Shown piece by piece: positions 29,280-37,945 of a stretch of DNA of 64,000 nt. Source of the DNA: Lachnospiraceae bacterium. GTDB taxonomy: Bacteria; Bacillota; Clostridia; Lachnospirales; Lachnospiraceae. Location: positions 5,657 to 69,656 of the forward strand of contig JAILES010000081.1 in the NCBI GenBank assembly GCA_024687205.1. The letters run 5' to 3'. Made by a program: the position numbers and the translations under genes. Below the pieces are notes generated by a model, which was given only the letters and a program-made list of their open reading frames with translations, did not search any database and was not told the origin of the DNA. Numbering within the stretch: position 1 is the first letter of the stretch; every line of letters starts with the position of its first letter.

Positions 29280-29382
29280 CTGATCTTCCTCCTATCGGGG
29301 TGTTTTTCAAATTTATCTCCATTATACATGCCCGGTGTAGCAAAAGTGAAACACCCTTACTATTATACCACAAAACAGTCCT

Positions 29383-29432
29383 ATCAGGGGGACGGTTCTC
29401 CGGTTGACCTGTTTTGTCAAACCGGGGATTTC
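29383..29432. repeat. REP-like palindromic element
   Basis: ATCAGGGGGACGGTTCTCCGGTTGAC-CTGTTTT-GTCAAACCGGGGA. Confidence 0.75.
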
Positions 29433-30983: not shown

Positions 30984-31008
30984 AGTCACTTTACCATTCT
31001 CAGTGTCA

Positions 31009-31113
31009 ATCAGGGGGACGGTTCCGCGGTTGATTTTGGTCAAAATTTGCCCTCAGATCTGCTGAAGCCCTTGAAAATATTAGCCGATCAGAGAACCGTC
31101 CCCCCGGTTGATT
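31009..31113. repeat. Pair of inverted REP-like units (REPIN-like)
   Basis: ATCAGGGGGACGGTTCCGCGGTTGAT ... ATCAGAGAACCGTCCCCCCGGTTGAT. Confidence 0.8.
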
Positions 31114-31136: not shown

Positions 31137-31165
31137 TTGCAAAGTTTAACACATCATGATAGAAT
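31137..31165 (+). promoter_or_regulatory. SigA promoter of the leader-GNAT transcript
   Basis: TTGCAA, 17 nt with TG extension, TAGAAT. Confidence 0.7.
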
Positions 31166-31191
31166 AACGCAACAACGAAAGGAAGCACACA

Positions 31192-31281
31192 ATGTTAAAT
31201 AACAAAAACCTGAAACTGTATAGCTACTATTATCTTCCCGAAAACAGGAAGCTTATTGCTGTGCAGTCTGACAGGAGATAA
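31192..31281 (+). CDS. Putative leader peptide MLNNKNLKLYSYYYLPENRKLIAVQSDRR (29 aa)
   Basis: RBS GAAAGGAAG. Lies between the promoter and a terminator, and its 3' end is complementary to the terminator 5' arm. Confidence 0.65.
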   Translation: MLNNKNLKLYSYYYLPENRKLIAVQSDRR

Positions 31282-31315
31282 TAAGAAGCAAAGAACAAAA
31301 CATGTTTCTTAAGAC

Positions 31316-31342
31316 CGTCTGCATAGCGCAGGCGTTTTTTTT
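31316..31342 (+). terminator. Intrinsic terminator (attenuator) upstream of GNAT
   Basis: CGTCTGC-ATAGC-GCAGGCG followed by T8, ~30 nt before the GNAT start. Confidence 0.8.
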
Positions 31343-31371
31343 ATACAACATTTCAAAAGGAGGAAACAAAA

Positions 31372-31839
31372 ATGATCATCAGATTTGCAAAAGAAAACGA
31401 ACTTGAACGGGTTAATGAACTGAGGAAGCAGGTAAATGATCTGCATGTTGCCGGAAAGCCCGATGTATTCAAGCCCGGTTTCGGACCGGAGCTGCGTGAT
31501 TTTATCAACGTGATCTGGAACGATCCCACCGAAAACATCGTTGTAGCCGATGATGAAGGTTTTATCTGCGGTTTTGCCGTGATCAATCACATCACTAAAC
31601 CTGAATCCCCGTTCATGAAAGAGCGCGATTTCCTGGACATCGATGAATTCTGCGTGGATGAAGAACACCGCAGGAAAGGCGTAGCCACTGCCATGATCGA
31701 ATTCATAAAGGATTTTGCAAAGGAAAACGGCTTTCGCCGGATCGAACTGAATATGTGGGAATTTAATCAGGGAGCACTGGCCTTCTACGAAGCAGCCGGC
31801 TTTGAAACCTTCCGCCGTTACATGGAAATGTTTCTCTGA
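31372..31839 (+). CDS. GNAT family N-acetyltransferase
   Basis: FCVDEEHRRKGVATAMI acetyl-CoA motif, N..ALAFYE..GF. Confidence 0.9.
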   Translation: MIIRFAKENELERVNELRKQVNDLHVAGKPDVFKPGFGPELRDFINVIWNDPTENIVVADDEGFICGFAVINHITKPESPFMKERDFLDIDEFCVDEEHRRKGVATAMIEFIKDFAKENGFRRIELNMWEFNQGALAFYEAAGFETFRRYMEMFL

Positions 31840-31847
31840 TTCTACAA

Positions 31848-31890
31848 TGGGGACGGTTCGGACAGATCACAGAACCGTCCCCACGGTTGA
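31848..31890. repeat. REP-like hairpin between convergent genes
   Basis: TGGGGACGGTTC-N12-GAACCGTCCCCA-CGGTTGA. Confidence 0.8.
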
Positions 31891-33258
31891 TCAGATTTTA
31901 TTACAATTTGTTTCGTCGTATGTCAGAGTGTTGTCATCGAATATGAAATGCGTCCATCTCATCTTCATGCTGAATCTGTCTTCACCGATGGGATAAAGTT
32001 TGGCGGTGAAGTCCCTTCCGTCCTCATCAACACCTTTGGCATAAAGATCGTCGTCTTTCATGAACACTTCATTAATGATAAGTTCGGCATCTTCGGGATG
32101 ATCATACTTTCCGCAGAAGGATCCCCACTTGGATCTGTCGGGATCTTTAAGGCTTTCATCCTCTATGGTAGTAACAGCACCCGGCTCCTTATCCATTGCG
32201 ATCGCACGCATACCGTTCCAGAGAGCTGCGTCTGCCCTTGCATCCTTCGATTCACGACATCCCATAAAGATAAGCACTCTGTCAGCATCGACATAACGTT
32301 CATACCAGGTATTGAGACCCGGCATACCGCCACCATGTTTCACGATCATTCCGAATTCAGGATCATTTTTGATCTCCCAGCCAAAACCGTAACCATCCCT
32401 GTCTTCATCGGCCCCTGATATACTTCCGTCATTAAGCTTAACCGTGCTGTACATTATTTTCTGTTCTTCCGAAGTCAGTACCTTTTCTTCTCGTAAAGCC
32501 CTGTCCCAGATGAACATATCAAAGATATCCGTATACACATAATCGTCTCCGTTAAGCCCGTCAAAAGCTATCACATCTCTGTCATTCGATTCTTCAACAG
32601 GAATATGCCTGCCGTCTTTCACAACCATATTACGGGCAGTATTATCATGAGGAATGCCTTCTGTCCAAATGTGGTGCACAGCGGTATGGTACATTCCCGC
32701 AGGTTCAAAAACATTCTTACACAAGTATTCCTCGAAAGGGATGCCCGCTGCTTTTTCTATGATCATCGCCAGCAGATTATATCCGCCGTTGGTGTATTCA
32801 AATTCTTCACCCGGCGCAAAGCACGGCTCTTCACCGTTCTCGGTAAGAAAGTGTATTACCGCATCGCTGCCCGGCACTTTCTTCTCTTCCTTCCACTTCC
32901 TGACGATCCAGTTATCTTCATCATAAGTTTCCGGAATGCCCCCGGTGTGCGTAAGAAGGTTCCTTATAGTCACTCCCGGATACGGAATCTCCGGATAATA
33001 CTTCGTAACCTCATCCTCAAGACTTAACAGTCCGTCTCTTACAAGGAGCATCACCGCTGCTGCCGTAAACTGCTTGGTTATCGACGCCAGCTCGAAAACA
33101 CTGTCTTCCCGCATCGGCAGTTTATCCGAAAAATCGCGGAATCCCTCTGCTCCCTTGCTTATGATCTTTCCTTTTTCTGCATACAGCCAGGTACCGTTGA
33201 ACGCCCCTTTTTCATATGCCTCATGTGTCAGCTTTTCAAATAAAGCTTTCTTATCCAT
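31891..33258 (-). CDS. Serine hydrolase, beta-lactamase/AmpC-like family, with a C-terminal extension
   Basis: SITK (SxxK), YTN (YxN), HGG, LLTHTGG; no signal peptide. Confidence 0.85.
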   Translation of the reverse strand: MDKKALFEKLTHEAYEKGAFNGTWLYAEKGKIISKGAEGFRDFSDKLPMREDSVFELASITKQFTAAAVMLLVRDGLLSLEDEVTKYYPEIPYPGVTIRNLLTHTGGIPETYDEDNWIVRKWKEEKKVPGSDAVIHFLTENGEEPCFAPGEEFEYTNGGYNLLAMIIEKAAGIPFEEYLCKNVFEPAGMYHTAVHHIWTEGIPHDNTARNMVVKDGRHIPVEESNDRDVIAFDGLNGDDYVYTDIFDMFIWDRALREEKVLTSEEQKIMYSTVKLNDGSISGADEDRDGYGFGWEIKNDPEFGMIVKHGGGMPGLNTWYERYVDADRVLIFMGCRESKDARADAALWNGMRAIAMDKEPGAVTTIEDESLKDPDRSKWGSFCGKYDHPEDAELIINEVFMKDDDLYAKGVDEDGRDFTAKLYPIGEDRFSMKMRWTHFIFDDNTLTYDETNCNKI

Positions 33259-33276
33259 AAATTCCTCCTCGATCAG

Positions 33277-33840
33277 TTAAATATTTGCATTGATCTCCTT
33301 GACGATCTCCAATATCTCGATATCTCCATCTGCAAGGATCTCCACGATCGGATCCTGTCCGTCTTCATTTGCGCCGTTCTGCCAGTAGATCTCCGCCATA
33401 CGAAGGTTTTCTTCTTCAGAAATACAGCCGTCAAAACACTTATACGCATCGCCTTCATAACAACGTCCGGAAACTTTTATCTTTGCAATCCCATAAGTCG
33501 GGCGTCCCAGCTTTGCAAAATACTCTCCCCAGCGCTCAGCTTCCTCAAGGGTCTTTGATACATATAAAGAAGCCATACGTGAAGGGTACTGCGGATACTT
33601 TTCTTTCCGGACTTTTTCAAGCGCCAGTTCCCTTAAAGCCACATCAACCGCGTGGCTCAATTCCGTATCTTTATACTTATCAGGATTACGGTAGATATCT
33701 TCAACCGTTTCTATCTGTTCATAAACACGTTTATGGATACCGTTTGGATGATCTTCATCCAACAGGATATGTTCTCCTGCCTTCTTCGGGATATCCGATA
33801 TAACGTGATAATATATACTCTCCATCATAACCCTCTTCAT
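33277..33840 (-). CDS. DUF2441-like protein (start may be ATG at 33828 or 33825)
   Basis: YYHV..RELALEKVRKEKYPQYPSRMASLYVS pattern. Confidence 0.7.
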   Translation of the reverse strand: MKRVMMESIYYHVISDIPKKAGEHILLDEDHPNGIHKRVYEQIETVEDIYRNPDKYKDTELSHAVDVALRELALEKVRKEKYPQYPSRMASLYVSKTLEEAERWGEYFAKLGRPTYGIAKIKVSGRCYEGDAYKCFDGCISEEENLRMAEIYWQNGANEDGQDPIVEILADGDIEILEIVKEINANI

Positions 33841-33844
33841 TTTT

Positions 33845-33876
33845 GAAAAAGGGCCGGCATCTCATAACCGGCCCTT
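33845..33876 (-). terminator. Intrinsic terminator at the end of the DUF1062 gene
   Basis: AAGGGCCGG-N10-CCGGCCCTT followed by a T run on the minus strand. Confidence 0.7.
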
Positions 33877-34188
33877 CATTAATTCAGCTTTGTTATTTTT
33901 CAAAAAATCAATATCTCTGCCATATGCATAGGCAGCTTCCTCATCATTAGCCTGAAAAGCTTCAAACAACTCCGTCGGGATCTTTCCCGGCCTAGTCCTT
34001 TCATAGATAGTAAGATTCCAGGAATGCTTGCATTTTTTGCAGCGGTAGATCAGCCACACATCCACGCCGTTACCGTTTGCATTTACCCTGAATCTTCCGG
34101 AATTAACAAATTCCCGTTTCTTACCGCAGCCTCCGCATTTATGACATATCCGGATCGCAGCGGATTCAGACTGCCGAAACGCCATCAT
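33862..34188 (-). CDS. DUF1062-like protein
   Basis: C..C..GRFRVNANG..VDVWLIYRC..C.HSWN..IYER. Confidence 0.75.
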   Translation of the reverse strand: MMAFRQSESAAIRICHKCGGCGKKREFVNSGRFRVNANGNGVDVWLIYRCKKCKHSWNLTIYERTRPGKIPTELFEAFQANDEEAAYAYGRDIDFLKNNKAELMKGRL

Positions 34189-34456
34189 TCATGGCCATGC
34201 GCTGATCCCGCAGTATCCTCTGAATGCTTTTTTCGGATAAAGAAAAACTCTGAGCCAGTTCTTTTAAACTGCGTCCTTTTTTATATGTTTTATATATCTT
34301 CTCGTTGCGTTCGCGAAAATATGTCTTTGCAGCAGTTCTGCTGCCCCATTCGAGTTTTTCTTTTGATGGTATATAAATTGACTTTCCTTCTACATATTGC
34401 TGAATCGTTTCTATTAATTCTTTGGGCAGTATAGTCTCTGCCTTTATATAGCTCAT
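34166..34456 (-). CDS. CD3324-family (Mor-like HTH) protein
   Basis: MSYIKAETILPKELIETIQQYVEGKSIYIP..RNEKIY..LAQSFSLSEKSIQRI; RBS GGAGGAGG. Confidence 0.8.
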   Translation of the reverse strand: MSYIKAETILPKELIETIQQYVEGKSIYIPSKEKLEWGSRTAAKTYFRERNEKIYKTYKKGRSLKELAQSFSLSEKSIQRILRDQRMAMNDGVSAV

Positions 34457-34487
34457 AATCCTCCTCCAAAATATAAAACAGGGATTC

Positions 34488-34536
34488 GTCTGAGCTTACG
34501 ATTCATTCGGTTTATTTAAGCTCAGACTACTGAGCG
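34488..34536 (-). promoter_or_regulatory. Alternative-hairpin attenuator upstream of the CD3324 gene
   Basis: GTCTGAGCTTA/TAAGCTCAGAC arms (34517-34527, 34488-34498). The leader's GCTCAG can compete for CTGAGC. Confidence 0.6.
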
Positions 34537-34556
34537 ATAATAAGTCTTCTGGTCAT
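34527..34556 (-). CDS. Putative leader peptide MTRRLIIAQ (9 aa)
   Basis: Strong RBS AAGAAAGGAG. The stop codon abuts an 11-bp perfect inverted repeat. Confidence 0.6.
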   Translation of the reverse strand: MTRRLIIAQ

Positions 34557-34603
34557 AAAAACTATGCTCCTTTCTTAACTGCTTAACTACATATCTGTTT
34601 ACG

Positions 34604-34632
34604 ATTATACAAAACAGCTTAGTACGTTTCAA
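34604..34632 (-). promoter_or_regulatory. SigA promoter of the leader-CD3324 transcript
   Basis: TTGAAA, 17 nt, TATAAT. Confidence 0.7.
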
Positions 34633-34666
34633 GCTCAAGAATATTTCCAAACGAACTTGCGCCATT

Positions 34667-36109
34667 CTATACATCCAGGCCGTATTTCTTCCGCTGTTTT
34701 ACCAATACGGAGATCTGCTTTTTCTTGGCATAGTTCCTGTGATTTTCTGCACCAAGACTTTTGTACAGTATATATCTCTCCATCGATAAAGTACCGTCTT
34801 CCAGTGCTTTCTTTATAGCACAGCCCGGTTCGGTATCATGCCTGCAGTCGCTGAACTTACACCGGCTCTCAAGTTCAAGGATATCCGAAAAAATATTGTC
34901 TAAGCTTTCTTCTGTCAGTGCCATTCCTATCTCGCGCATTCCCGGAGTATCAATGATCGACACTCCGTTTTCAAGCTCTATCAGCTGTCTGTAGGTAGTG
35001 GTATGGCGGCCTTTAGAATCTGATTCCCTGATCGCCGAAGTTTTCATGGTCTCTTCACCCGTAAGCGAATTAAGCAGTGTCGACTTGCCTGCACCTGAGG
35101 ATCCCATCAGACAAATAGTCGTACCGGGTGTAAGGTACTCTTTCAGTTCGTCCATGCCTATATCATACAGGGCTGATATGGCATGTACCCTGATCTTATC
35201 CGATATGGTCTCCACCTCACTCACATAACGGCCGACGTTATTGCACAGATCCGCTTTCGTAAGTATGGCAACCGGTATCGCGCCTCCCTGCAGAGCTACA
35301 CTTGCATACCTCGCTATGCGGTTATAACTGTAGTCATCATTCAGCGAGGTGACGATGAAACAGTAGTCCACGTTTGCTACCATATACTGCATCACACCTG
35401 TTTTGGACTGATCCGGTCTCTGCAAAAAGCTCTTTCTTTCACAGACGGAAAGTATCCTGCTGTCACCGTCCGGGTTAAACTTAAATGTCACATAGTCACC
35501 GACTACCGGAAGTTTATCAGCCTCTTCTTCATAAAAATCTCTGATCAGTACTGCCGGCAGTTCCCGGCCCATAAACTTTATGGAATAGCGGTTCTTCTGA
35601 ACCTCGCAGATCCTTCCGGTTTTTTCTTTCCCCAGTTCCATATAGGTAAAAACTGTCGGATCCTCTCCCTGTGCGATCACATGCTCCGGCATTTCTTTTT
35701 GGACAAAACCCAGCCTGCGGTATAAAGCTATTGCCCTGATGTTAGCCGGACGTGGATCTACCCACACTGTTTCAGCTCCGTTTTTAAAGGCTTCTTCTAT
35801 AGAGTGTTCCAACGCCCGGGTTGCGATACCCCGTCCCCATGCAGACTTAAACAGTTTGATATCCAAAGCTGCGCTATGTGTAGCTTCATCTATCCCATAT
35901 TGTGTCTCTCCGCAATATTTACCGTCTTCAAAGATTGAATAATGCTTTTGCATCGGTCCGGCATTGATAAATCTGTCCAGCCATTCCCGTACAGCGTCCT
36001 CTGTTTCATGTAAGCCTCCGGGCCAGATATACTTCATAACATCTTCATCAGCCCAAAGACTCTGAATATTCCTGATATCATCATAAGTTGATTCTTTAAT
36101 TGTGATCAT
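34667..36109 (-). CDS. Fusion: RimJ/RimL-type GNAT + RsgA-family circularly permuted GTPase
   Basis: aa 1-160 GNAT (WGRGIATRAL, N.RAIALYRRLGF). Then VVGDYV, ANVD, TKAD, GSSGAGKST, GRHTT, DTPG, CKFSDCRHDTEPGC. Confidence 0.85.
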   Translation of the reverse strand: MITIKESTYDDIRNIQSLWADEDVMKYIWPGGLHETEDAVREWLDRFINAGPMQKHYSIFEDGKYCGETQYGIDEATHSAALDIKLFKSAWGRGIATRALEHSIEEAFKNGAETVWVDPRPANIRAIALYRRLGFVQKEMPEHVIAQGEDPTVFTYMELGKEKTGRICEVQKNRYSIKFMGRELPAVLIRDFYEEEADKLPVVGDYVTFKFNPDGDSRILSVCERKSFLQRPDQSKTGVMQYMVANVDYCFIVTSLNDDYSYNRIARYASVALQGGAIPVAILTKADLCNNVGRYVSEVETISDKIRVHAISALYDIGMDELKEYLTPGTTICLMGSSGAGKSTLLNSLTGEETMKTSAIRESDSKGRHTTTYRQLIELENGVSIIDTPGMREIGMALTEESLDNIFSDILELESRCKFSDCRHDTEPGCAIKKALEDGTLSMERYILYKSLGAENHRNYAKKKQISVLVKQRKKYGLDV

Positions 36110-36219
36110 TTTTTCCTCCGATCATTAACACATACTTCCCTTTTCAGACACACTGTCATAAAAAGGGATAAAACAATAAAACGATTTTGTCTTAAAACCT
36201 CGGGATTGAAAATGGACAT

Positions 36220-36249
36220 AAAAATACCGTGACGGGAATGCCACGGTCC
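36220..36249 (-). terminator. Terminator-like hairpin in the leader of the GNAT-RsgA gene
   Basis: ACCGTG-GCATTCCCGT-CACGGT followed by ATTTTT. Confidence 0.6.
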
Positions 36250-36279
36250 TATGATTTCAAAAGAATTATTCTTATCAGA

Positions 36280-36351
36280 TCAATATGCACAAACCGAGGT
36301 CTTCATACCATATTCACTTGCAATCTCTGTTCTGTTTACACGCATAATCAT
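36280..36351 (-). CDS. Putative leader peptide MIMRVNRTEIASEYGMKTSVCAY (23 aa)
   Basis: RBS GCGAGGT. Lies between a promoter and a terminator hairpin. Confidence 0.55.
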   Translation of the reverse strand: MIMRVNRTEIASEYGMKTSVCAY

Positions 36352-36387
36352 GAATACCTCGCTTTCTTCAAAATTTATTTCCTGCAA

Positions 36388-36416
36388 ATAATAACAAAGA
36401 GTATCAGACTTGTCAA
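36388..36416 (-). promoter_or_regulatory. SigA promoter of the leader-GNAT/RsgA transcript
   Basis: TTGACA, 17 nt with TG extension, TATTAT. Confidence 0.7.
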
Positions 36417-36431
36417 TTACAATTTTTTCGT

Positions 36432-37808
36432 CTAATCAAGATCTTTGACATCTTTCTTATCAACGATCGCTTTCCCGAGCCATTTTTTCTTATACCAGTA
36501 ATACATGACTATCAGCCCGCGTATACATTCATCGGTAGCTGTTCCCGCATAAATACCGGCGACGCCGACACCGATAACAACACCGACCAGATATCCTGTG
36601 GTAAGGCCCAGGCTCCAGTTGCATACCAGCCCCATGATAAGCGGGAATATATATGCTCCGGCAGCTTTAAGACTGCTGACAAAAGTCATGTTGAGGCAGC
36701 GTCCCGTCTCAACAAAAATATCAGCGATCATTATCATCTGGCCCAGGGCGATGATATTCTCATTCGATGTAAAGAGACGCAGGGTATATCTGCAGAGTAT
36801 AGCATTGACGGAAGCAAGGGCTATCGTTATTGGCAGTGATGTCCTCAGAGTCTTAAACACTCTCTTATAAGCTTCATCCGACTTGCCCGCACCAACGAGG
36901 TGTCCCGTTATTATCTGTGTAGACATGGCAGATGCGTTTGAAAAGATCATCGCAAAAGATATCAGTGTATTGCAGTATGTTCTCGCATTCACCGAATCGT
37001 TTCCCATACTGTTTACAAAAGAAAGCAGTGTCGTCTGATAAAGATTATAAGTAAGGGATTCACCGGCAGAAGGAAGTCCTATCTTTATCATCTTCTTCAG
37101 CAGTTTCCCGGGGAAGGGATTCAGATAACGCAAAGATATCTTTCCTATACTTTTCACATAAAAGAATGCGATAAGTACCGTTACGGCAATGAACCTGGCA
37201 GCTACCGTCGATATTGCAACGCCTGCCACACCCATCTTCAGGAAAGTAAGCGGGCCATAGAGGAAAAGATAATTTCCGATAATGTTTATCACATTGATCG
37301 CAAACGACACCCACATACCTATCTTGGTATATCCGTTACATCGGAGTATCTGAAGCATTACATTAAACACAGCAGTGATAAATCCACCGCCGCCTACGAT
37401 ATATATGTAGATCATCGAGTATGGACGCATCTCGGGAGATACGTTAAGGAAATTCATGATCAGAGGGTTTGCTGCGCAGAAGACACCGCTGAGGGTCAGA
37501 CCGATCACAAAATTCACTGCTACGGCAAGAGTGTATATCATGTTCATCTTTTCAATACGTTTAGCTCCGAGATACTGTGCAACCACCACGCTTGTAGCTG
37601 TAGCAATAACATTGAACAGTATGTTCATCATGAACATGATAATATTTGCATTTCCGACTGCTCCGACTGCATACTCATCATAATGGCTGAGCATAAGCGT
37701 ATCAACATTATTGAGCATGGTATTCAGGAACAGCTCAAGAAACATCGGTCCCGCCAGGAGAAGCAGCGGTGTTTTTTCATCTATTACTATAGTTTTCTTC
37801 TCATTCAT
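36432..37808 (-). CDS. MATE family efflux transporter
   Basis: ~12 TM; AVGAVG, VVVAQYLGA, LFLYG..GVAGVAIST, IGLPSAGE. Confidence 0.9.
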   Translation of the reverse strand: MNEKKTIVIDEKTPLLLLAGPMFLELFLNTMLNNVDTLMLSHYDEYAVGAVGNANIIMFMMNILFNVIATATSVVVAQYLGAKRIEKMNMIYTLAVAVNFVIGLTLSGVFCAANPLIMNFLNVSPEMRPYSMIYIYIVGGGGFITAVFNVMLQILRCNGYTKIGMWVSFAINVINIIGNYLFLYGPLTFLKMGVAGVAISTVAARFIAVTVLIAFFYVKSIGKISLRYLNPFPGKLLKKMIKIGLPSAGESLTYNLYQTTLLSFVNSMGNDSVNARTYCNTLISFAMIFSNASAMSTQIITGHLVGAGKSDEAYKRVFKTLRTSLPITIALASVNAILCRYTLRLFTSNENIIALGQMIMIADIFVETGRCLNMTFVSSLKAAGAYIFPLIMGLVCNWSLGLTTGYLVGVVIGVGVAGIYAGTATDECIRGLIVMYYWYKKKWLGKAIVDKKDVKDLD

Positions 37809-37945
37809 ATTTCAATAAACCTTCTGTCCTTTGATCCCGTAATAGAATATAACATACGGTTCAGAATATCCTCTTATTTTCTTCTTCAAATTTACCACTT
37901 TTTGTGATTTATCATGCCGGAATAACAAAGCATTCTCAATATACT

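Follow-up and report, generated by a model that had tools for sequence, protein, structure and literature searches.

Three unrelated leader-peptide switches, probably reporting ribosome trouble, before separate gene modules in Lachnospiraceae

Introduction

Many inducible genes for resistance or ribosome rescue detect translation inhibitors through leader-peptide switches, and the responses of gut and rumen Lachnospiraceae to antibiotics and diet are poorly understood. The present analysis concerns positions 31,137 to 37,808 of a stretch of 64,000 nucleotides (nt) from a gut or rumen Lachnospiraceae bacterium (assembly GCA_024687205.1, contig JAILES010000081.1), the whole of which is called the window. 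Three transcription units lie between 31.1 and 36.4 kb: the plus-strand gene of a GNAT acetyltransferase (GNAT1); a tightly packed minus-strand operon of four genes encoding a CD3324-family protein, a DUF1062 protein, a DUF2441 protein and a serine hydrolase; and a minus-strand gene in which a GNAT domain is fused to an RsgA-family GTPase. Before each unit stands a leader with a short upstream open reading frame (uORF) and a hairpin, numbered 1 to 3 in the order of the units just given. Comparison with other genomes indicates that these leaders are real conserved switches, each made of a mini-gene and an RNA hairpin and probably reporting ribosome trouble.

Genes and leaders of the locus

An earlier note on this DNA had described each unit as opening with promoter, short ORF and hairpin, had assigned the cargo to modification or ribosome-related families, and had seen no named resistance gene among them. 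All three leaders are indeed present (Table 1). The families were confirmed with Pfam and NCBIfam (GNAT, Beta-lactamase fold, DUF2441, DUF1062, CD3324/Mor, GNAT with RsgA, and MatE), and no resistance-specific NCBIfam model comes near its cut-off for any of these proteins. GNAT1 scores 31 bits on the AAC(3)-I model, against a cut-off of 200, and reaches the cut-off of no NCBIfam model; the serine hydrolase scores 49 bits on the class C beta-lactamase model, against 415, and stays far below the cut-offs of all NCBIfam beta-lactamase models; the MATE protein reaches only the generic model TIGR00797. Sequence searches of the PDB with CD3324, DUF1062, DUF2441 and GNAT1 gave uncharacterised or insignificant matches only: the closest solved structures to GNAT1 are 3jvn and BH1408, both uncharacterised, and the relative of DUF2441 is 2aua, a hypothetical protein. 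The host genome holds a second RsgA-like match on another contig, with 29% identity to the fused copy; we take this match to be the housekeeping copy, and the fused protein is therefore regarded as an RsgA paralogue.

Table 1. Genes and leader elements of the region, with positions in the window (SD, Shine-Dalgarno sequence; aa, amino acids; bp, base pairs; E, expectation value).
Feature	Position	Strand	Description
Leader 1	31137-31371	+	GNAT1 SD after the terminator
Leader 1 promoter-like site	31137..31165	+	TTGCAA-17-TAGAAT with TG extension; 9/12 matches; correctly positioned upstream of the uORF
Leader 1 uORF	31192..31281	+	29 codons, MLNNKNLKLYSYYYLPENRKLIAVQSDRR; tyrosine (Tyr) run YSYYY at 31219-31233
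Leader 1 intrinsic terminator	31316..31342	+	CGTCTGC-ATAGC-GCAGGCG (31316-31334), then eight T
GNAT1	31372..31839	+	GNAT acetyltransferase, 155 aa; Pfam Acetyltransf_1, E 7e-18
Convergent GC-rich hairpin	31841..31890	.	GGGGACGGTTC..GAACCGTCCCC; copy of a dispersed repeat
Serine hydrolase	31891..33258	-	Beta-lactamase/AmpH-like fold, 455 aa; last gene of the CD3324 operon; Pfam Beta-lactamase, E 1.5e-49
DUF2441 protein	33277..33840	-	187 aa; Pfam DUF2441
DUF1062 protein	33862..34188	-	Zinc ribbon, 108 aa; 23-nt overlap with the end of the CD3324 gene; Pfam DUF1062, E 7e-25
CD3324-family protein	34166..34456	-	Small helix-turn-helix protein of Mor type, 96 aa; NCBIfam CD3324_fam 102 bits (cut-off 65); Pfam Mor, E 1.7e-8
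Leader 2	34457..34632	-	Promoter, SD, uORF, segments 2 and 3, anti-SD/SD hairpin; segment 4 is the start-codon region
Leader 2 promoter	34632-34604	-	TTGAAA-17-TATAAT
Leader 2 uORF	34556-34527	-	MTRRLIIAQ, stop TAG
Leader 2 hairpin	34526-34517 with 34498-34489	-	10 bp, segment 2 with segment 3
GNAT-RsgA	34667..36109	-	RimJ/RimL-type GNAT (Acetyltransf_3) fused to a complete RsgA-family GTPase, 480 aa; Pfam, NCBIfam
Leader 3	36110..36416	-	Promoter, SD, uORF, ACCTCGG box, terminator
Leader 3 promoter	36416-36388	-	TTGACA-17-TATTAT with TG extension
Leader 3 SD	36360-36356	-	GAGGT
Leader 3 uORF	36345-36280	-	MRVNRTEIASEYGMKTSVCAY; from 36351 if the first ATG is used
Leader 3 box	36300-36294	-	ACCTCGG
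Leader 3 terminator	36247-36226	-	Followed by a T run; GNAT-RsgA starts at 36109
MATE efflux transporter	36432..37808	-	Pfam MatE; neighbour, membership in the system not demonstrated

Promoter-like sites are not enriched in the window (19 found, 19.9 expected from shuffled sequence), and terminator-like sites are about twice as frequent as expected (14 found, 7.9 expected). The window by itself does not beat chance, and the case for the leaders therefore rests on the conservation of leader and gene together in other genomes.

Leader 2 and the CD3324 operon

CD3324-family genes occur in 92 of the 400 genera of Lachnospiraceae that were sampled, and the leaders of 30 CD3324 loci from different genera were compared. 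All 30 carry a well-spaced SD, an ATG, an ORF of seven to ten codons and a stop, and the layout that follows is common to all of them: a strong hairpin directly after the uORF, an anti-SD/SD helix, and a gene start of the form ATG-RGC-TAT. The encoded peptides form two clades, M-[KR]-[KR]-R-Y-V-I-A-Q (clade 1) and M-[KR]-R-Y-V-M-F-A (clade 2), and the uORF ends in TAG at 26 of the 30 loci. The R-Y-V core is preserved across changes between AGA, AGG and CGA and between TAT and TAC, with few sequences showing them. Exact pattern search for clade 1 in GTDB, with one genome per species, gave 88 stretches, nearly all from gut or rumen Lachnospiraceae and among them Pseudobutyrivibrio, Roseburia, Lachnospira, Agathobacter, Acetatifactor, Coprococcus and Eubacterium. 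Two cultured strains, Pseudobutyrivibrio xylanivorans DSM 14809 and Eubacterium uniforme ATCC 35992, are among the carriers. Counted on the 80 loci returned, the element is followed by a coding sequence starting ATG-RGC-TA in 78, and tblastn places a CD3324 homologue downstream in 77.

The RNA structure is conserved along with the uORF. Across an alignment of 24 sequences the helix between segments 2 and 3 is 97% paired, and nine of its 11 pairs have changed on both sides, a figure reached by none of 500 shuffles. Helix 3:4, which joins segment 3 to the start-codon region, is 76% paired and has one covarying pair (columns 89/135, UA in 12 sequences and CG in nine), which tracks the choice of Ser or Gly as second codon. 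Helix 1:2, which joins the end and stop codon of the uORF to segment 2, is 94% paired with some compensation in clade 2; for clade 1 it was read directly from the sequence as the six-base-pair helix GCUCAG/CUGAGC. At the locus in the window the SD of the CD3324 gene lies inside the second hairpin, and in the minimum-energy fold the last part of the uORF is paired with the start of CD3324. The first hairpin, which the earlier note had paired with its leaders as a terminator, has no adjacent U-tract and belongs instead to the structure that hides SD and start codon.

Leader 2 thus looks like a translational attenuator of the ermC and toiL kind, as judged from uORF, helices and gene start. Four mutually complementary segments would lie at and after the end of the nine-codon uORF. 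With no stalled ribosome, the CD3324 start region would be paired (3:4 or 1:4) and the SD held in its hairpin; if a ribosome were held at the conserved K/R-R-Y-V codons, it would cover segment 1, leaving 2:3 pairing to free the start. Once open, the leader would permit synthesis of the Mor-type regulator CD3324, of the coupled DUF1062 protein and of the cargo, here the DUF2441 protein and the serine hydrolase. When a ribosome footprint of 27 nt was modelled with its P site five to six codons before the stop, on the K/R-R-Y codons, the accessibility of SD and AUG rose from 0.31 to 0.46, the change being seen in 20 of 24 sequences of a crude calculation that treats equilibrium folding only.

A covariance model of leader 2 (R1) finds a single copy in the genome of the window, and under strict filters it finds one match in 150 genomes from the rest of the class. 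Because of these two results leader 2 is read as a family-restricted, gene-linked leader and not as a mobile repeat; the element appears essentially confined to Lachnospiraceae. Mobile repeats were considered as an origin of the uORFs in general and rejected, each leader being single-copy in the genome and always standing before the same gene family. Two further CD3324-like genes, with 38% identity, lie on contigs C80 and C62 of the genome of the window (G000; loci L038 and L040); they have no uORF leader and stand directly behind another gene, guessed to be phosphotransferase-like.

While CD3324 is constant behind leader 2, the genes that come after it vary. DUF1062 stands beside CD3324 in 44 of the 80 clade-1 loci and DUF2441 accompanies it in nine (tblastn). 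Among 131 downstream proteins from 67 clade-1 loci GNATs were the commonest (30), followed by DUF1062 (27), the Beta-lactamase fold and DUF2441 (seven each) and RsmC/PrmC-like methyltransferases (3-4). The sample with one genome per genus (28 loci, 56 downstream proteins) gave nine DUF1062 proteins, eight GNATs, one ABC-F protein and one release-factor-like protein. Single genomes illustrate the same variation: in G001 DUF2441 is deleted, leaving CD3324, DUF1062 and the hydrolase; G084 has an orthologue of GNAT1 directly behind the CD3324 gene; and G002 has unrelated genes there. The rarer cargo (L094, the L100-L101 region and others) includes an ABC-F protein, a release-factor-like protein with PCRF and RF-1 domains, and RsmC/PrmC-like methyltransferases, all of them translation-related.

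Leader 3 and the RsgA paralogue

The RsgA paralogue was found in 58 of the 400 genera. Of the 26 paralogues that share 54% identity or more, about 20 have leader 3 in front of them, built as SD GAGGT, ATG, an ORF of 20-24 codons and a terminator; the leader is missing before paralogues with less than 50% identity. Its carriers span about 20 genera. The peptide ends in (E)Y-x-M/I-x-T-S-V followed by three to six residues and the stop, and the 5' arm of the terminator is almost always CCGYGGC. None of the 18 aligned sequences interrupts the frame: its 386 codons contain no stop, as against 58 and 29 stops in the other two frames, and gaps within the uORF are multiples of three, the one exception being a column in the variable tail behind T-S-V. 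Pairing in the terminator reaches 95.7%, five of its pairs have changed on both sides, and a U run follows it.

RNAalifold independently gives this terminator together with a helix between the SD of the uORF and the ACCUC of the T-S-V codons, a helix which is invariant. The box ACCUCGGU can also pair with the CCGYGG arm of the terminator in all 18 sequences (85% of cells paired), which makes an antiterminator plausible. The leaders had been searched with [AG]CCTCGG as seed, and this biases any claim of invariance for the box; the independent family-wide pattern scan gave 14 true sites against eight matches of the reversed-pattern control. The same scan detected elements like leader 3 before stand-alone GNAT genes (L146, L210). 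At L213 (G386:C74) a variant stands before an ABC exporter with CCTCGGT read in another frame (peptide ..ACLGIFF..), which suggests that the fixed part of leader 3 is the RNA box and not the residues T-S-V.

These features are those expected of a conserved transcription attenuator, and leader 3 is predicted to be one. The SD of the uORF would pair with the invariant ACCUCGG box in the T-S-V codons, and the box could alternatively pair with the conserved CCGYGG arm of the terminator. The position of the ribosome on the uORF would then decide between termination and read-through into an inducible GNAT-RsgA paralogue. The GNAT part itself is variable: N-terminal fusions to the RsgA paralogue are of Acetyltransf_3 type and about 160 aa in the window and G017, of an unrelated YhbS-like type and about 205-228 aa elsewhere, and lacking in other genera (L004, L006, L044-L046, L051, L052, L055, L061). 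With two unrelated GNAT domains fused to the paralogue in different genera, the association of GNAT with RsgA is a recurrent one.

The MATE stop and the promoter of leader 3 are no more than 15 nt apart, and the terminator of leader 3 could serve MATE transcripts as well. This, together with the promoter-like matches that are no more frequent than chance, would suit the view that the hairpins are merely terminators of upstream genes (MATE, anti-sigma) and the small ORFs accidental. The comparison between genomes already contradicts that view, since each leader is conserved together with the gene behind it and the gene upstream varies. In G017, leader 3 and its gene (92% protein identity) follow a histidine kinase and not MATE, and the hairpin is therefore not merely a MATE terminator; other genera differ again. 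The probability left to accident is close to negligible.

Leader 1 and the tyrosine codons

Leader 1 differs from the other two in its restricted distribution. Scanning 45 genomes of the genus for the motif Y-x-YYY-[LV]-x-x-N-R returned the window, G001 and G450 only. Both sister genomes have a Tyr-rich uORF, a terminator and then a GNAT about 45% identical to GNAT1, and their promoters are of the TTGACA type. One uORF of G450, MHRNAIGYSYDEMISVYAYYVYAYYYVCENRDCRER, holds ten Tyr in 36 residues, and that of G001 is similarly rich. In the minimum-energy fold the first part of the Tyr run (CUGUAUAGCU) is paired with a later segment of the leader (UGCUGUGCAG), and that segment can pair with the 5' arm of the terminator, as the earlier note had observed. 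The pairings would correspond to the classical 1:2/2:3/3:4 layout; a fold of the truncated transcript was uninformative. Leader 1 would then be a classical attenuator read at the run of Tyr codons and controlling a GNAT. It looks like a lineage-restricted tyrosine-codon attenuator, an amino-acid rather than a drug sensor. It is speculation that GNAT1 detoxifies a Tyr analogue or D-tyrosine, which would fit control by Tyr codons.

Island, regulon or mosaic

The uORFs, the helices and the gene associations described above are conserved, and the short ORFs of the earlier note have accordingly turned out to be real cis-regulatory leader ORFs before gene families that repeatedly travel together. 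The proposal of a single island or regulon is not supported: the three leader families are unrelated, their predicted mechanisms differ, and neither synteny nor a shared operator was found to link them.

DNA comparison with five sister genomes shows how loosely the units are joined. G017 has only the unit of leader 3 and GNAT-RsgA, separated from the NAD synthetase homologue by about 22 kb, as against 3 kb in the window. The hydrolase, RsgA and the GNAT of leader 1 are on three different contigs in G450, and in both G017 and G450 MATE is on other contigs than the RsgA unit. The conserved island was rejected on these grounds, the units lying on different contigs or about 22 kb apart. Some tendency to neighbourhood is seen for CD3324 and the RsgA paralogue: of about 27 genomes with both, G286 has them side by side and G364 at a distance of 3.3 kb, and RsgA lies within 8 kb of CD3324 in one of the 80 clade-1 loci. 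By rough estimate this proximity is more than chance and far from a fixed unit.

One trans-acting regulon is a rival reading. CD3324, with or without DUF1062, would then be a WhiB7-like master activator of the neighbouring GNAT, GNAT-RsgA and MATE genes once its uORF gate opens. The Mor-type helix-turn-helix of CD3324 speaks for such a role, as do the positions of CD3324 beside the GNAT1 orthologue in G084 and beside the RsgA paralogue in G286. So does a conserved element directly before the -35 in clade-1 leader 2 promoters: 46 of 76 loci (L119-L194; 34604-34680 on the minus strand in the window) share a block running into the -35, GNNCANNTTTGTTT-N11-TGAGGTTGCAA(-35)-N17-TATTAT. This block is a candidate autoregulatory site, putatively bound by CD3324 and/or DUF1062. 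Against the regulon, a search of the genome of the window allowing one mismatch found the known copy of the block and no other, leaders 1 and 3 have sigma-70 sites close to consensus with no box in common, each unit has a cis switch of its own, and the units occur independently in other genomes. A shared operator marking a regulon was dropped, the element being single-copy in that genome, and the regulon as a whole is regarded as improbable.

The reading that we favour, with rather better than even confidence, is a mosaic. Three independent cis-acting, ribosome-dependent leader-peptide switches of three families would each govern a gene module of its own, and the modules would respond to translation status without forming a fixed island or a single regulon. 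The leaders are unrelated in sequence, and their mechanisms appear to differ, one being translational (leader 2) and two transcriptional (leaders 1 and 3).

Several observations weigh against this reading. The antiterminator of leader 3 is invariant on both sides, shows no covariation and retains a U.U or U.C mismatch. The leader 2 of the window is a poor representative of its family: its peptide departs from the consensus (RLII for RYVI), its SD hairpin is atypical too, and the modelled ribosome leaves its SD closed. Leader 1 is confined to three species, closer orthologues of GNAT1 (52-70% identity) in seven other genera have no Tyr leader, and in equilibrium folding a modelled ribosome (P site S11-Y14) lowers the terminator probability from 0.97 to only 0.62-0.82. 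No reliance is placed on these ribosome-masked folds, which favour leader 1 weakly and have no effect in the leader 2 of the window. No cargo protein reaches the cut-off of a resistance model. Finally, codon-position entropy shows no three-base periodicity in the uORFs of leaders 2 and 3, and the evidence for coding rests on maintenance of frame and on the spacing of SD, ATG and stop. As for the Tyr leader, the suggestion that it is a general feature of the GNAT1 family was rejected in view of the 52-70% orthologues in seven genera that lack it.

The missing periodicity is what would be expected if the switches were RNA-only, binding a ligand or a protein, and the short ORFs were by-products of constraints on the RNA. 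Stems conserved in sequence, and an ACCUCGG that is fixed at the nucleotide level and stands in another frame in L213, point the same way. On the other side are the constant distances between SD, ATG and stop, seen in all 30 leader 2 loci and all 18 aligned leader 3 sequences with the other frames rich in stops, the synonymous changes of Arg and Tyr codons that preserve the peptide, and the uORF gaps in multiples of three, bar that one tail column. The hairpins, moreover, are simple and have no conserved junctions resembling a ligand pocket. RNA-only control is rated as highly improbable.

Neighbouring features

The region is flanked upstream by MATE and a CitMHS-type transporter and on the opposite side by an ECF (extracytoplasmic function) sigma/anti-sigma pair. 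MATE has no leader comparable to the three and no conserved leader. An ORF of 16 codons, MLYSITGSKDRRFIEI, at 37806-37856 on the minus strand overlaps the MATE start by ATGA, with a weak and badly spaced SD.

The convergent hairpin between GNAT1 and the hydrolase gene is probably a bidirectional terminator for GNAT1 and the CD3324 operon. It is formed by a palindromic repeat of about 105 nt (31008-31113, 29382-29408 and 31841-31890) that brackets the sigma/anti-sigma pair and the GNAT1 unit. The sister genomes G017 and G001 hold dozens of copies; the repeat is a genus-wide element similar to repetitive extragenic palindromes or miniature inverted-repeat transposable elements, and it may favour the shuffling of units.

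Signals and significance

We infer where the ribosome stalls, which signals are read (drug, amino-acid shortage or another translation stress) and what the enzymes do. The same mechanism could serve supply: the switches would report amino-acid or charged-tRNA supply, or general translation capacity, and not antibiotics. Leader 1 would then sense tyrosyl-tRNA, and leaders 2 and 3 slow decoding or termination in starvation. Tyr runs such as those of leader 1 (four of five codons in the window, ten of 36 in G450) are a hallmark of classical attenuators, and for Firmicutes leader peptides of the Phe/Tyr kind have been predicted before (Stav et al. 2019, PMC6429828). Leader 2, whose stop is almost always TAG (26 of 30 loci), could for that reason be sensitive to termination dependent on release factor 1. 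Judged by its title, one study (PMC10274678) has whiB7 coordinating, over and above antibiotic resistance, the adaptation of mycobacteria to alanine starvation; as far as that title goes, drug and amino-acid signals therefore need not exclude each other. Supply is less easily reconciled with the genes themselves, since no amino-acid biosynthesis or transport gene is found among the cargo, and the peptides of leaders 2 and 3 are not enriched in any single amino acid. The cargo of GNATs, hydrolases, rRNA-methyltransferase-like enzymes, ABC-F proteins and the RsgA paralogue fits drug-response regulons better. Supply as the signal is regarded as rather unlikely.

Leaders 2 and 3 are abundant in gut and rumen Lachnospiraceae, and they mark several uncharacterised proteins (CD3324, DUF1062, DUF2441, the GNAT-fused second RsgA and several GNATs) as likely players in translation stress. 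The leaders also supply short candidate sensor sequences. If the RsgA paralogue were an inducible protection or repair factor directed at the 30S subunit, it would form a new class beside HflXr, ABC-F and TetM-type factors. Should the signals be nutritional, the modules would still show the coupling of accessory enzymes to the status of the ribosome.

Comparison with known systems

Leaders 2 and 3 appear to be conserved attenuator families, and we could not find them in Rfam 15 or in the literature searched. Scanning Rfam 15 with E up to 5 gave no family for any of the leaders and no match whatsoever for leaders 2 and 3. The best match between 29000 and 40000 was caiA (26.4 bits against a threshold of 55.5, E 0.62), which falls on the terminator and ribosome-binding site of leader 1. 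Searching the literature for 'CD3324' gave nothing relevant, and no paper was found that connects RsgA with leader peptides.

The closest parallel to leader 2 is offered by ermC (also ermB and cat). Common to both are a short leader ORF with its own SD, the alternative of pairings 1:2 and 3:4 or 2:3, here with covariation support, the inclusion of the SD and start of the regulated gene in pairing 3:4, and a shift of fold by a ribosome on the leader, which for leader 2 is predicted. Leader 2 differs in regulating a small Mor-type regulator with variable cargo and not a resistance enzyme, in a peptide (M-K/R-R-Y-V-I-A-Q) unrelated to known arrest peptides, and in a helix 2:3 much stronger than 1:2, with the stop codon inside segment 1. 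The uORF toiL of the topAI-yjhQP operon of E. coli pairs with the ribosome-binding region of the next gene, and stalling at various codons, caused by several classes of ribosome inhibitor, opens the pairing (PMC12121999). Leader 2 likewise has a very short uORF, the end of which is paired with the CD3324 start in the minimum-energy fold of the window's copy; the two are unrelated in sequence, and toiL is proteobacterial, acts together with Rho termination and has toxin-antitoxin cargo.

Leader 3 resembles the ribosome-mediated transcription attenuators of inducible resistance or rescue genes, such as bmrB-bmrCD (PMC4191407), hflXr/rli80 (PMC6310831) and mef/msrD (PMC4335068), in that its leader ORF is followed by an intrinsic terminator and a rival pairing, here a predicted one, reaches into the ORF. 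It shares with hflXr the position before a paralogue of a ribosome-associated GTPase. The peptide and RNA family of leader 3 would be new (SD:ACCUCGG pairing, CCGYGG terminator arm), and its cargo is an RsgA paralogue, often GNAT-fused. Leader 1, with its run of Tyr codons followed by an intrinsic terminator, belongs in kind with trpL, pheL, hisL and the predicted Phe/Tyr 'aromatic amino acid attenuator' uORFs (PMC6429828). On the other hand, it precedes a GNAT and not a biosynthetic operon or Tyr importer, its antiterminator is weakly supported, and it is found in three species.

The mosaic as a whole may be functionally analogous to the actinobacterial WhiB7/WblC response. Induction of Streptomyces wblC proceeds by way of an attenuator that a uORF mediates and of a promoter under autoregulation, and the WblC regulon includes 16 GNATs, an RsgA/EngC paralogue, an ArfB/RF2 paralogue, ABC and MFS exporters, hydrolases and an rRNA methyltransferase (PMC7157823). 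Our locus shares the small transcription factor gated by a uORF and similar lists of cargo. In contrast, CD3324 is a Mor-type helix-turn-helix protein by its Mor and CD3324_fam matches and not a WhiB Fe-S protein, leader 2 appears to be translational and not transcriptional, and the RsgA and GNAT units have cis switches of their own, with no shared operator found.

It is tempting to go further and to propose that Lachnospiraceae carry a Firmicute counterpart of the WhiB7/WblC response, assembled from portable parts. One part would be a uORF-gated pair of CD3324 and DUF1062 that deploys GNATs, serine hydrolases and rRNA-methyltransferase-like enzymes. The other would be a separately uORF-gated second RsgA, often GNAT-fused, that docks on the decoding centre of the 30S subunit to protect, repair or acetylate small subunits that are hit by drugs or misassembled. 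This proposal is doubtful and frankly speculative; if true, it would mean an undescribed mechanism of ribosome protection or repair with an undescribed arrest peptide, M-K/R-R-Y-V-I-A-Q, as its sensor. The likeness to WhiB7/WblC is best taken as a functional analogy only, one that lends support to the general idea of the earlier note and implies no membership in the actinobacterial system.

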